This document shows positions 30,801 through 45,800 of a stretch of DNA of 64,000 nt, in pieces. Position 1 is the first letter of the stretch. Every line of letters starts with the position of its first letter. This DNA is from Nemertoderma westbladi (lineage: Eukaryota; Animalia; Xenacoelomorpha), in assembly GCA_032718475.1 (NCBI GenBank), contig JAUCBJ010006679.1, forward strand, positions 1 to 64,000. Direction: 5' to 3'. The notes beneath the pieces were generated by a model that saw only the letters and a program-made list of their open reading frames with translations, had not been told where the DNA came from and made no database searches. A program made the translations under genes and the position numbers.

Positions 30801-33800
30801 CATTCAATGGACTGGGGGCGATTTATGGGCGAATATTGGGGCGACTTACGGGGTACGGGACTCATTTCATGTATTTAAGGGCCAGGGGTGGAAGGAAAAG
30901 TTAAGCAGTATTCAGGTTTGCCTGATTACTATTAGGCCTAGCCAACTTCCTGCTGCCTGTAGAGGTGGATTTGGTAACTCGCTAGGTCTAAAGGACAAGG
31001 ACTGCCCTTAGCGGTCCCTGGCCAACAGCAGTTATTACGAGCCTGAATAAGGACTCGGAAAGTCTGCTGCTTGTGTCAGGGATTGGCGACGGGAACCGAC
31101 GACAGACCCCTAGCCAAGCCGTACTGGTTCCTGATGACCGATCCCTTCAGGGTTCGGGAAGGGTGGGATGGACACGCGAACGGGTCGACCGACTAACGGA
31201 AGAAGGGTTCGACGAGGACTGCCTTCCTGGAGTGGGTTCCATGACCGGCGTTAGTACGAGCCTGAATAAGGACTCGGAAAACCACCAACCGTTGAGGCTC
31301 ACGACGGGCTGACAGACCCCTAGCCAAGCGTACTGGTTCCTGATGACCGATCCCTTCGGGGTTCGGGAAGGGTGGGACGGACACGCAACGGGGTCGAAAG
31401 ACAAAGGAATAGACTCTACTGGCCTACCGACTGTTCGGAGCAGCTTCTCGGCCGCCGAAGCGACTACGAGCCTGAATAAGGACTCGGAACTCCTAGGTGG
31501 TTGGGTCCCTGCGATGAACCAACGGACCCCTAGCCAGGCCGTACTGGTTCCTGATGACTGATCCCTTCGGGGTTCGGGAAGGGTGGGACGGACACGCAAA
31601 CGGGTCCACCGACACGACAGACCCCTAGCCAAGCCGTACTGGTTCCTGATGACCGATCCCTTCGGGGTTCGGGAAGGGTGGGACGGACACGCAAAAGGGT
31701 CGACTGACGCCGACACTATGGTACCGAGACTAGGACCGGGGGAAAGTTGGGGAACATTAGTTTGTCTAAAATCTGAGCGAACAGTGGGTAATTAAATAAT
31801 GTACTGTAGGGATTTATATTGTCGTGTTATATTATTGTTAATATTTGGTGTATATTGGTTTGGGGTAGCCCAATTTATTCTCAATCAAGGTTCAACTGTA
31901 GGGAAGTTACATTAAAGACTATATCCAACCAATGAAACTTTTCTCAACTGCAACCTTGCATTTAAGAACGTATTCCTTCTCCACTACCAATATCCGGTGA
32001 CTGGCCGGGATTCCGTGGTCTGAAAAGTTCCACCTCCAGCATCGGCGTTTTTCCCCCATGGTGTCGGGAATAACGGCAACAAAATTGAGAATAAGACGCG
32101 GCCAACTTCAACTGGTGGAAGTTGGGAATCCTACAATACTCTTCAAACTCTCTCCGTGCTTACCCAGCACCCACTACGAGGAAACTCTGGTATTTGATTT
32201 AAGACAAAGCCGTGGTTTAATCAATCGAATTCGAATTTCGAAATCGGACTCAAATTAAAAAACTCGTAGTCGGCAGATCACATAAAGAGAGTCGTTAAAC
32301 AGGGAATGGAAGTATCGATCACACCCATTGATATAATCCAAGTTGAGCCAGGAATCTGGCATGTCGAAGTTGAAGTACAAGGAACAAACGTTGGACGATT
32401 CAGGATTACCGTTTGGGTAGTCCAGGCTGAGTACGAGACATACGAAGAACTATTTTACGATATCGCATATCTAGCTATCAACGAGGTGCTAGAATGATGA
32501 CGAATAACGTCTCCGACACCAATGAGATGGACCCCCACACAGACTCGGAGGCCGACGAGGTACCGAACGTCAAGAATATGACCCGTCGACTAGGCGCTCT
32601 CAAAGGCTGAGTCACTCGAGCATATCAACGTATAGAGAAACAACTAAGGGGAGTCGAAACACCCCTCAATGAGATACAGACTCAGCTACAAAATATCCGA
32701 AGTATCTTACAACGATATGAGAGGATGATACAAGCATATCAAGAGCTCATCCCCGCCACTGATCAGGTAAACTAACCCAGACTGGAAGAACACGCTGTAC
32801 ACCTAGATGAGTTCCGCAAACAACATCGGAGGACCCTCAGCCTCGTGAGAGGCTATGAGGAACAGTACTATAAGAGAATGGAAAGAACAGACGCAGAATC
32901 AGTGCGGACCTCCAGCACCAGGGCAGCAATTCATCGAAAGAGAATGGGGTCCTCGAGGCACCAGCACTCCAGCACTAGGAGCGAGATGCCTGGTTCAGCG
33001 CATAGTTCTCAAGGGGGCCAGCCACTCCGAGATCAGCTTCGAGAACAGAGGGCATTGGCCCTTAAAGCTCGAATGGAAGACGAATATGTTCAACTACAGA
33101 TCAAACAGGATGTATTGGCAGCCGAAATGCAAAAACGAGAGGCCAAACAACAGGCCGAACAACGTAAACGAGAGGCCGAACAACAGGCCGAACAACGTAA
33201 ACGAGAGGCCGAACAAGAGGCCGAACAACGTAAATGAGAGGCCGAACAACAGGCCGAACAACATAAACGAGAGGCCGAACAACAGGCCGAACAACGTAAA
33301 CGAGAGGCCGAACAAGAGGCCGAACAACGTAAACGAGAGGCCGAACAACAGGCCAAACAAGAGGCCGAACAACGTAAACTAGAGGCATAAATGCGTAAAC
33401 AACATGCCGAGGCTCAAGCGATTCTCATCCATAAAAAGAATGCGGATATTGCGAAACTCGCGGAATACGAATATATGAGGACGGGGAAAGGGGTATAGAA
33501 CAGAACTATGAATCAATCCCGGTCCCGGAATTAGAGAAGTCATTTACGCCACCGGCAGCAAAACCTCCGAAACCCGAGTTCCCGCCAACCATACAGTCTA
33601 CGTTATCGGCAAAAGCACCGGTATTCCATCCCCCACCGGTTACGCTTAAGAATGAGGAACCTTATTTCCCATCCAACCCCACGGTACCGAGCGTTCCCAA
33701 GTACGAGCCTGAAAAGGACTCGGAACGGGACGCCACCCCTCGATCCAACAATCCATTTACATCCACACCACAAATCCGTAACCGTGTCATCATTAAACCT

Positions 33801-42800: not shown

Positions 42801-45800
42801 AAATGAGTAATAAATGAGAAATGAAAAAAGACAAAAAAATGGATAAAATGTAGAAAGAAAAGAATTGGAAAAAAGAAGAGGACATAAAAAGTCAAAACTG
42901 GTTGGATATTAATGTATAGCTATAGTAACTGTAAATGCTGAATGTAGTAGCAATAAGATGGTAGATGCCTATATAGCAATGATATTTAATAAACTGAATT
43001 ACAAATAAACTGAATTATTCTGCAGTCACTATAGTATAAGACTTTCTGGATTTATAATTAACTGATATAAATTTGCAACGGACATAATCGAAAATATGGA
43101 CCCAAATCACCAAATTATCGGCGAACTACATAATACAATAGATTTACTGGAATATCCACAACCTGGATCCCCTAACTTTGATACAAAATGGAACGCCCTG
43201 ATAAATGAGAATGTGCGAGTCGTCAAATTCTCCGGGCAAGAGGGACTGGATTCCCGGAATCTATGAGACCTCCGGTTGTCCGATGCTAGTACGAGACTGA
43301 AAAGAACTCGGAACGCAAAGGCAACCGGAGGAGATGAGTTGTCGTTCTGGGAAACGTTCCGGCAAAGCATCTACAAATCCCGATGTTTGATATACAACAA
43401 CGAGGGAAATGCGACGCCCACCTCGAAAGCGATTACGTTGGCGCGATGCCAAAGTTTTGTCGACAACAAGAGTACGTACCTCATCCACTGGGGAAACCTA
43501 GTGGAGTGTACGGCTACGCTGCGAGAGGAACGTATATCAGTTATCCAGAATCGCGACGACTACCAGGAGAAGTATGGGACGAAGGAATACGGTCGATCCT
43601 TGGTCGCCGTCCTAGGAACCCTAGACGGTTTGGTGTTGGTATGTCGAATATTTCCGACACCCAAACAGGAGGTGCGGACAGCCGGTGCGATCTGGCTACT
43701 ACCACCTGAGATCCAAAAGATCTTATTTGACTTCGACATCATTAAAATCGGGTCGGATATAAAGGCGGACGTCCGAAACGACTACGCGAACGCTCCTTTC
43801 GGAAGAAACCGTCGAGAAGATCTCAACGCCATTAGTCATTGCATCGACACCCAAACACTATTAGCCTGGTTACGATCCGCCGAATTCATGCGGGGATTCC
43901 GAGAGGTGAGACTTACGAAATCCGGTATCGGCTACCTCGCAGTGCTAAACGGCGGTATAGACTTTAAACCCCAGAAATTCCAGGATTATAATAAAATATA
44001 TGGTGGATACCCGGGATTAGAAATAAAGAGTGAGCGAGAGAGCCGCTGGAAGGACGTTGAAAGAAAGCGGACGATCCACCACAAGTGGGAGAATCCGGAG
44101 CGACGGAACTACATCTACGTCATTATGGAATCATACACAGTCGCTAAGTTCATCTGTAAAACTCTCGATAGCCTCATTACGGCGGTTCCTAGATCCTTTA
44201 TCGACTACGAGTGGAACGAAGTTATCAACCACACGTTCAAAGCGGTAGAAAATATTTCACCGGGAGAGACGAAAATGCTCACCGTCATCGCATCATGGGA
44301 TGAGAATGGGCCGTTCGACATCCCTACGATTACCGATCTCCTCGGTGCGGAGGAACCACTGATTTCCTCGGATGGGGAAGAATTATGGCTACAGGAAGGT
44401 GTTCTACTGTCCACCCCAAAGCGACAACTCGATCCGGAAGTCGCGTACGAACCGGCCGCCAAACGGGTCGCCTCCGCCGAACCTGCGACGGAAGCAGGCA
44501 TTTCCACCCCACTTGGCTCCGGTAGCCCCGCGAGGGAGTTAGTCACTACCTTCGGATTGAACGACTTCGGCGACATATGCCAGAGGTTGTCCCCATATCC
44601 GTTCCCGGGGGGCGAAGACTGGTCTTCGGAGATACCGAGTACCAGCACCCAACGGACCCGCTCAGCGATACTGGTTGAAAAGGGTCCCAGCGCTGCGCCG
44701 ACTCCCGTAGATCTCCTCGGAATTCCTCCATCGAAAACCCCGGCACCTCTTCGCTGACCAGCGGTGGCAACTACCCCTTCCGTTCCACAGGATCCTATGC
44801 GACTTACCCGATGGTACCACCGAATGGATCCACCGCCAGAAACGGTCACCCGAGATGCGTCCGGCAGGATATAAAGAAGGTTATCGAAACAAGAACATAC
44901 TACGCCAAAGCACAGCCTTTTGCGGGCTGCCGGCCACAGCGAATATTCCTAAAAGCGACCGACGACTCGAGTATCACGCCGGCGTCCCGATTCCAATATT
45001 CTTCGGCCGGGAGATGCAACTGGAGGTGTGCGAAGACTGCGGTTCGGAGCAGTGCCTGCGCGGTAGAAGAAATCGGGTTACCGATTCGTGCCTCCAGCTC
45101 CTCGGGATACTTTATTGTCCCTATTGCGCGACATCGGGCCACGATGTTTCAGTTTGTCCGATCCTTTATAACCTCTGCACAACTTGCGGTTTCCGGGGAC
45201 ATTCCGCTAGCCCCCGCTGTAATATAAAATGTCCCACGAAGGACATTACCGCTATGGGAAATCTGGTTATGTTCGAAACCTAAGCAAATAGCCACATAAA
45301 GACCAAAGTACGGAGAAACGCTCGGAATATCGCGCAGGAGATGGCGTGCGGGTACTTTTCGTTCCCGGAACGCCTCCATACGACAGCGACGTTGCCATTC
45401 CATTACGTGGATCTATTACTAAGCGCTGGATTATTCGGCCCCTTCGAGATCCTTAGGCGTTTATATTCATATAAGGAAGAGTTTGGTGATGGAAAGTGGT
45501 TCAGAGAGGCACGCACCACCGAGTTAGAAAGATGAACAGATATGAGCCCGCTACCATCGAAAGGAAAAGCCGCCAGGAGACAAGCCAAAACGTTGCTCAC
45601 AATGGATGTTGACGCTCCCCTACCAGCACTGGCGATCGACGAGAGTCGACGGGCGAAGAGGAGAAAGGCATATCAGAGAAAGAAATAGAGGACCAGGATA
45701 TTCCAGGAACATTTATATCGAACATTTATTTTTATATATTTACATAAACTAACTCTAGGCCAAATTAATCGAGACTATGCAATATTAAAATTTTGGGTTT

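Follow-up and report, generated by a model that had tools for sequence, protein, structure and literature searches.

A repeated hairpin in a BEL/Pao retrotransposon

What would keep one short sequence in the long terminal repeats (LTRs) and in three coding regions of the same retrotransposon? The question is raised by the window analysed here, a stretch of 64,000 nucleotides (nt) of Nemertoderma westbladi DNA (contig JAUCBJ010006679.1), which holds a single decayed LTR retrotransposon of the BEL/Pao group at 30693-47197, sitting within a 23-bp satellite. The sequence, hereafter called module X, is present in nine copies, every one on the sense (+) strand of the element, with three copies in each LTR and one each in gag, pol and open reading frame 3 (ORF3) (Table 1). 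Module X is a real, selected and repeated signal. It probably acts at the RNA level, because the copies lie on the sense strand only, their lower stems are unrelated, the gag and pol copies use identical codons, and variants of the ORF3 copy preserve the fold. The more specific proposal developed below, to which the sequence gives an even chance, is that module X is a dispersed protein-binding hairpin, a docking site by which an element-encoded protein would select its own RNA for packaging or export.

The three internal copies described in the original prediction are all present with the loops and peptides given there, the pol copy lacking the ANTA/GAA flanks. The AGUA/GAA signature of loop E that was also proposed was recovered as ANUA opposite GAA, the loop E/sarcin-ricin consensus, in eight of the nine copies; the exception is again the pol copy, where a paired stem with one A.G stands in for the loop-E part. 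The free position varies (G, U or C) and corresponds to the base of loop E that is bulged and tolerates the most change; the A, U, A and GAA are constant. The ORF3 copy also has the U.C neighbour of the sarcin-ricin loop (SRL), and it reads ACT/AGA, an A.A apposition at the position of a C-G pair in the other copies. GNRA loops, as predicted, close the three internal copies; the LTR loops are pentaloops, GAAUA in five of six and AAAUA in the sixth. The copy at 46429 carries two point changes and is predicted to be unfolded. The sequence fits a fold of module X as loop E plus a GNRA loop.

When compared with shuffled sequence, as the original prediction had proposed, the core pattern did not arise in any of 1000 dinucleotide shuffles of the internal region (13.8 kb), against three occurrences observed. 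When the nine copies were used to build a covariance model, it recovered those nine alone in the window, a match by construction, with the next site at 9.8 bits against at least 38.7. The Rfam covariance-model scan returned nothing for module X or for the second LTR module, Y, described below, and one chance SNORD39 match elsewhere (E 3.8). DNA pattern scans returned four viral contigs and one bacterial contig, none with blastn similarity to the window, and these were treated as chance. No related locus was found among metagenome contigs with ORF3 as the query, or among viral contigs with the ORF3 profile or pol.

These figures bear on the least probable of the explanations considered, that the internal matches reflect chance or a conserved peptide, EPxKDS. 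The gag (EPEKDS) and pol (EPAKDS) copies do share one codon phase and five residues, and the core alone arises by chance in huge collections, as in the four unrelated viral contigs. Besides the shuffles, however, identical codons at the five common residues have p 0.007 if the peptide alone is conserved, and the ORF3 copy (STRLKRTRN) is read in another phase. The original prediction had argued for a nucleic-acid-level signal from conservation across different reading frames; there are two phases in total, gag and pol falling in the same one, so the frame argument depends on one copy, and the signal is now supported by the strand bias, unrelated stems, codon identity and ORF3 variants. The gag and pol copies fall outside Pfam-matched domains. 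The further claim that the motif is placed once per coding region holds for gag, pol and ORF3 but is not a rule, since a 63-codon upstream ORF and a separate knuckle/protease stretch carry no copy.

Predicted folding and lower stems

A feature missed in the original prediction is that the motif forms the tip of a longer predicted stem at five of the six distinct sites, with lower stems that are unrelated in sequence. Folding z-scores were -3.4, -0.2 and -2.0 for the three 5' LTR copies, -3.0 for gag, -4.6 for pol and -6.4 for ORF3, and the seven core pairs were predicted in contexts of up to 300 nt at eight of the nine copies (mean pair probability 0.81-1.0). Between the six distinct sites, the 22-nt flanks have 8-17 of 44 bases in common, approximately the level of unrelated sequence. 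Their pairing was equalled by 2, 715, 12, 83, 186 and 1 of 2000 random element flanks (LTR copies 1-3, gag, pol and ORF3, respectively), for a combined p of 1.4e-6 over the six sites and 3.6e-4 over the internal three.

Variation among related copies at the ORF3 site

The family was sampled in four DNA runs (X1-X4) of one organism, from at most three samples, with high summed depth. Variants were allotted by depth to two full-span contigs of run X4 (contigs X4/25 and X4/26), and the comparison covers the ORF3 site. Contig X4/25 spares the hairpin; contig X4/26 does not, and breaks three pairs. In contig X4/25, differences were found at 2 of 63 hairpin positions against 16 of 93 flank positions (Fisher p 0.009); among the variants listed the counts were 2 of 63 and 9 of 33 (p 0.0009), the other 7 of the 16 flank differences being inferred to lie near the ends. 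Both hairpin changes merely shift a bulge by one base, and two of the flank changes, taken together, give the stem an extra C-G pair at its foot; these four changes are also the majority forms in runs X1-X3. Contig X4/26 carries two coupled changes that convert the A.A apposition to C-G, and two of its pairs become wobbles; four of its nine hairpin changes were found in no other run. Several of the tolerated changes at this site replace an amino acid (judged by eye), so that conservation of the protein does not by itself account for the constraint. The early ORF3 stop is absent from more than 99% of the summed depth in runs X1-X3, and this stretch of ORF3 is thus coding in the family.

Two further groups of contigs align at this site. 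In contigs of a more distant type (two, two and one in runs X1, X2 and X3), the alignment begins at 43270, the foot of the hairpin. Contigs with the flanks of LTR copy 1, found in runs X1-X4, match the ORF3 tip without gaps over 43285-43316 (32 nt), which indicates a tip form common to both sites in other family members, arising either through conversion or through a common reader. LTR copy 1 in other family members apparently has a tetraloop.

The shared 32 nt, as if from gene conversion, favour a reading in which module X functions at the DNA level, as an enhancer-like imperfect palindrome to which a transcription factor binds in U3, or in which the internal copies are neutral LTR pieces carried in by template switching. 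The core is nearly palindromic, the LTR copies lie in the predicted U3, and enhancer repeats are common in U3. This reading is nevertheless unlikely: all nine copies point the same way, the lower stem of each is unrelated to the others and could not have come from copying, the variants retain pairing via wobbles, a bulge shift and coupled changes, and the non-palindromic ANUA/GAA flanks are retained in eight of nine copies.

Predicted transcript, self-priming and module Y

Which copies would be present on the genomic RNA depends on where transcription starts. No TGG transfer RNA (tRNA)-type primer site adjoins the LTR. Eleven LTR bases are, however, exactly complementary to a site just 3' of the LTR, an arrangement seen in 3 of 3000 shuffled LTRs, and TATAT lies 24 bases upstream of the first of them, at 31875; the spacing of this word and of ATTAAA at 31911 is consistent with a transcript start there. 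The Tf1 retrotransposon primes reverse transcription with its own first 11 bases, as described in PMC7175516, and self-priming is reported for the Tf1/Sushi, Tcn1 and TAR groups in PMC6317226; nothing on self-priming in BEL/Pao was found in the literature search. Tf1-like self-priming is therefore predicted from sequence for this BEL/Pao element. A start at 31875 would place the LTR copies of module X in U3, transcribed at the 3' end only, in the 3' untranslated region (UTR). The genomic RNA would then carry six copies, approximately 1.8, 8.4, 11.4, 14.3, 14.6 and 14.8 kb from its 5' end, half of them in the 3' UTR.

In U3, module X alternates with module Y, a kink-turn-type rod closed by GACCC/GGGUC and present in four copies per LTR; in copy 3 the outer stem is lengthened through a coupled change. 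A kink-turn descriptor matched six of the eight Y copies and no other site in the element on either strand, the remaining two being off by one base. CUGAUGA is present in module Y, and GAAA follows it in none of the eight copies.

Two of the rival explanations are RNA-based and involve no protein. In the first, module X would be an RNA-RNA tertiary contact, its GNRA loops docking in receptors, perhaps in module Y, and compacting or dimerising the genomic RNA. All three internal loops are GNRA, which together with the alternation speaks for docking; no convincing 11-nt or IC3-type receptor was found, however (TATGG/CCTAAG at 45253 and 45279 lacks the closing pair), the LTR loops are pentaloops, and docking leaves the invariant CGAG/CUCG stem and the bulged A unexplained. 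A tertiary contact is accordingly given a low probability, similar to that of a DNA-level signal. In the second, module X, alone or with Y, would be part of a self-cleaving ribozyme, since AUUA/GAA resembles hairpin-ribozyme loop B and the CUGAUGA...GAA of module Y resembles a hammerhead. This is very improbable. No Rfam ribozyme match was obtained at E up to 5, the loop-B strand pattern is present at no X copy, GAAA is missing after CUGAUGA in all eight Y copies, where the same letters form the kink-turn, and a cut in the coding regions that carry module X would destroy the genomic RNA.

Candidate reader proteins

If module X is instead a protein-binding hairpin, its reader may be encoded by the element. 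ORF3 is a tentative candidate, and the Gag nucleocapsid, since Gag also has knuckles by Pfam, is a more doubtful one; both proposals derive from sequence features. ORF3 in this copy is interrupted by in-frame stops and a change of frame. A word search found no ORF3 homologues and a profile search found P0100 alone; of four phmmer matches, P0100 (E 9e-6) and P0102 (E 9e-5) were credible distant relatives, and P0099 and P0101 were dropped as repeat proteins. Two open stretches further along the window also match P0100 (pairwise E 1e-7 and 1e-4), so that it has three separate regions in common with ORF3 and the same architecture as the ORF3 region. The double knuckle of P0100 resembles retroviral nucleocapsid (E 1e-4). 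Atlas neighbours of ORF3 are DNA_pol_A_exo1 proteins, one cluster of them with CCHC knuckles (0.85-0.86). ORF3 may be inactive as an exonuclease because the acidic residues of the first exonuclease motif in P0100 and P0102 align unclearly in it.

The reader might otherwise belong to the host. In this main rival explanation, which is possible though improbable, module X would recruit an RNA-binding protein of the host that serves transport, export or stability, like the I-factor signal with Egalitarian (Egl) or the constitutive transport element (CTE) with NXF1. Three X copies lie in the predicted 3' UTR next to kink-turn modules, and kink-turns are usually bound by host L7Ae-family proteins. 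Loop E is described as used for RNA-protein contacts (PMC8403530), and Egl as reading bent stem-loops with bulges on the 3' strand, two copies being needed, including a retrotransposon signal within coding sequence (PMC13186709). The likeness to Egl signals, among them the I-factor localisation signal, extends to the stem-loop with a 3'-strand bulge, the multiple copies, one of them in retrotransposon coding sequence, and the exonuclease-homology domain that is said in PMC13186709 to contact RNA. Module X, however, is conserved in sequence, and it is the element that encodes the exonuclease-like protein considered here. Egl signals have a pair of helices no shorter than 6 bp, with 3' bulges and U-A pairs spaced 8 bp apart, in any sequence; in module X the helices above loop E, which are G-C rich, measure 4 and 3 bp. 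A dedicated reader would better suit the strict tip sequence and the family-specific variants. An Egl-type signal was rejected as a reading of module X, as were a ribozyme, a peptide motif and chance.

Proposed mechanism

The protein-binding hairpin would work as follows. The tip would begin with the loop-E module, followed by 4 bp, then a bulged A, a further 3 bp and, at the end, a GNRA or GNRA-like loop. Being fixed, it would present to a protein the widened groove of loop E, the bulged A and the GNRA-type loop. The variable lower stems would merely display the tip, and their freedom would let module X fit into protein linkers. An element-encoded zinc-knuckle protein would bind several copies cooperatively, avidity would create a preference for the element's own RNA, and the bound RNA would be chosen for packaging or export. 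On a broader reading, which the sequence makes possible without making it probable, this would be a 'complex' BEL/Pao element with its own RNA operator system, in which an accessory protein, with an exonuclease-like fold, knuckles of nucleocapsid type and an arginine-rich tail, binds a repeated loop-E/GNRA hairpin that is arrayed with kink-turn rods in the 3' UTR and combined with tRNA-free priming. By analogy, and with similar reserve, such a system could be likened to a phage operator, or to a Rev response element divided among several modules.

Several observations weigh against the protein-binding hairpin and its candidate reader. Contig X4/26 is unspared, with 9 of 63 hairpin positions differing against 9 of 93 in the flanks (p 0.45), and is either evidence against the proposal or a decayed copy. 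In the 5' LTR, copy 2 is without a good lower stem (715 of 2000 random flanks), and its 3' LTR partner is the copy predicted to be unfolded. In a swap matrix a site's own flanks pair best in just four of six rows, and the 22-nt flank length was picked after the folds had been viewed. The loop-E part is absent from the pol copy. The seven core pairs are nearly without classical covariation, so that sequence identity alone cannot separate recognition as RNA from recognition as DNA, and reverse-strand folds are about equally stable at three of five sites. The transcript start is placed by motifs only; a second TATA-like word occurs at 30872, and the 3' LTR, which lacks about 60 bp around the predicted start, is without the primer stretch. 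The exonuclease-like assignment of ORF3 is a lead only (Pfam E 0.2 for P0100), both AlphaFold models have a predicted local distance difference test (pLDDT) score near 34, and nothing significant was returned when PDB sequences were searched with ORF3, with its profile or with its knuckle stretch.

The host element and its surroundings

The element has the BEL/Pao (Belpaoviridae) order of domains, DUF1759, zinc knuckles, Peptidase_A17, integrase zinc finger and DUF5641, between direct LTRs, and the 5-bp target duplication of that group, with four of five bases in agreement. Relatives of the reverse transcriptase-RNase H stretch were found in animals at 31-41% identity (97 matches), the best database relatives being at 35-41%. 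The element differs from the group in having a predicted self-primer in place of a tRNA-type primer site, 1.4-kb LTRs with X/Y arrays, and the accessory ORF3 at the env place. Nematode Cer elements carry an exonuclease ORF, which our literature searches did not retrieve. Features are collected in Table 1.

Table 1 Coordinates of the element, its coding regions and its repeated modules in the window.
Feature	Position	Strand	Description
5' LTR	30693..32081	+	TG...CA; inserted in 23-bp satellite
Module X, 5' LTR copy 1	31034..31060	+	AUUA/GAA, GAAUA loop; long lower stem
Module X, 5' LTR copy 2	31253..31279	+	AGUA/GAA; weak lower stem
Module X, 5' LTR copy 3	31463..31489	+	ACUA/GAA; 10-bp lower stem
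Module Y, four 5' LTR copies	31105..31703	+	Kink-turn-type rod, UUCG cap; GACCC at 31105, 31315, 31525, 31620
Predicted 11-base self-primer and transcript start	31875..31885	+	TATAT at 31851, ATTAAA at 31911
Predicted primer-binding site	32084..32094	+	2 bases past LTR; exact complement of 31875-31885
gag-pol, decayed BEL/Pao	32497..41848	+	DUF1759, zf-CCHC, Peptidase_A17, Integrase_H2C2, DUF5641 (Pfam)
gag-linker hairpin	33691..33733	+	Module X at 33700-33725, loop GAAA; reads YEPEKDSE
RNase H-integrase linker hairpin (pol)	40223..40277	+	X core at 40241-40259, loop GCAA; reads EPAKDS
ORF3 region, env position	43096..45688	+	Exonuclease-like domain, double CCHC knuckle, arginine/lysine-rich end
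ORF3 hairpin	43269..43331	+	Module X at 43288-43313, loop GAAA; 12-bp lower stem; reads STRLKRTRN
3' LTR	45869..47197	+	96.6-98.4% identity to 5' LTR; purine tract immediately upstream
Module X, three 3' LTR copies	46210..46666	+	At 46210, 46429, 46640; predicted 3' UTR
Module Y, four 3' LTR copies	46281-46880	+	Same kind as 5' LTR copies

Other features were observed in and around the element. The stop of the 63-codon ORF (32306-32497) overlaps the likely gag start codon in a stop-restart layout. About 2.6 kb (34540-37200) part the capsid-like from the knuckle portion of gag. This interval opens with coding sequence that is of low complexity and includes a hydrophobic segment; G-rich non-coding repeats follow, together with two hairpins that pair almost perfectly (36587-36616 and 36680-36730). 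It is either a nested insert or a natural spacer. The interval between pol and ORF3 holds three related long hairpins (42120-42530, two at -35 to -40 kcal/mol), a third kind of repeated structured module. Outside the element, a reverse transcriptase ORF with DUF6451 lies at 53737-55095 on the (-) strand and is not part of it, and the region 22000-26000, which is C-rich and strongly skewed with long overlapping open frames, is probably a tandem repeat.

Comparison with known systems

By analogy, module X would work most like the dispersed packaging signals of single-stranded RNA viruses and the Rev-type response elements. The former, of the type of the MS2 translational repressor (TR) hairpin, are described in PMC6281560 as stem-loops throughout the genome, some in coding sequence, with a common tip that includes a bulged A on variable stems; multiple stem-loops with a common tip are likewise found along this element. 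The viral signals are described there as degenerate, numerous and bound by coat protein, whereas module X hardly varies, is present six times per predicted RNA, contains a loop-E module and belongs to an LTR retrotransposon. The Rev, Rex, Rem and Rec response elements (PMC12789967) are similar in being structured RNA at the 3' end that overlaps the LTR and in the accessory ORF with a basic tail, whose product could multimerise; a basic tail and knuckles are both seen in ORF3. They differ in being single and large, as described in PMC12789967, module X being a small repeated module found also in gag, pol and ORF3, and ORF3 has no detected likeness to Rev-type proteins but has knuckles and an exonuclease-like domain. 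Loop E, found in the SRL of ribosomal RNA, in potato spindle tuber viroid (PSTVd) and as loop B of the hairpin ribozyme (PMC8403530), is a building block for module X and not a family assignment. The likeness lies in the ANUA/GAA pairing and in variation at the bulged position, and a natural C-to-U variant is described for PSTVd loop E in PMC8403530; the module in X differs in being capped by a 7-bp bulged stem, not directly by a GAGA loop.

No hairpin like module X in a BEL/Pao element, and no description of self-RNA recognition in BEL/Pao, was found in the literature searched, which covered a minority of subscription papers, and no relative outside the host organism was found in the metagenome, viral and bacterial contig scans. 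BEL/Pao is a major group of animal retrotransposons, and a 26-base module present six times on the predicted RNA offers a small, testable handle on how its members recognise their own RNA. If the proposal is true, dispersed packaging signals or Rev-like control would be extended from viruses to an LTR retrotransposon. If a protein partner is confirmed, module X and that protein would also form a natural and compact tag for RNA, similar to the MS2 and boxB systems.

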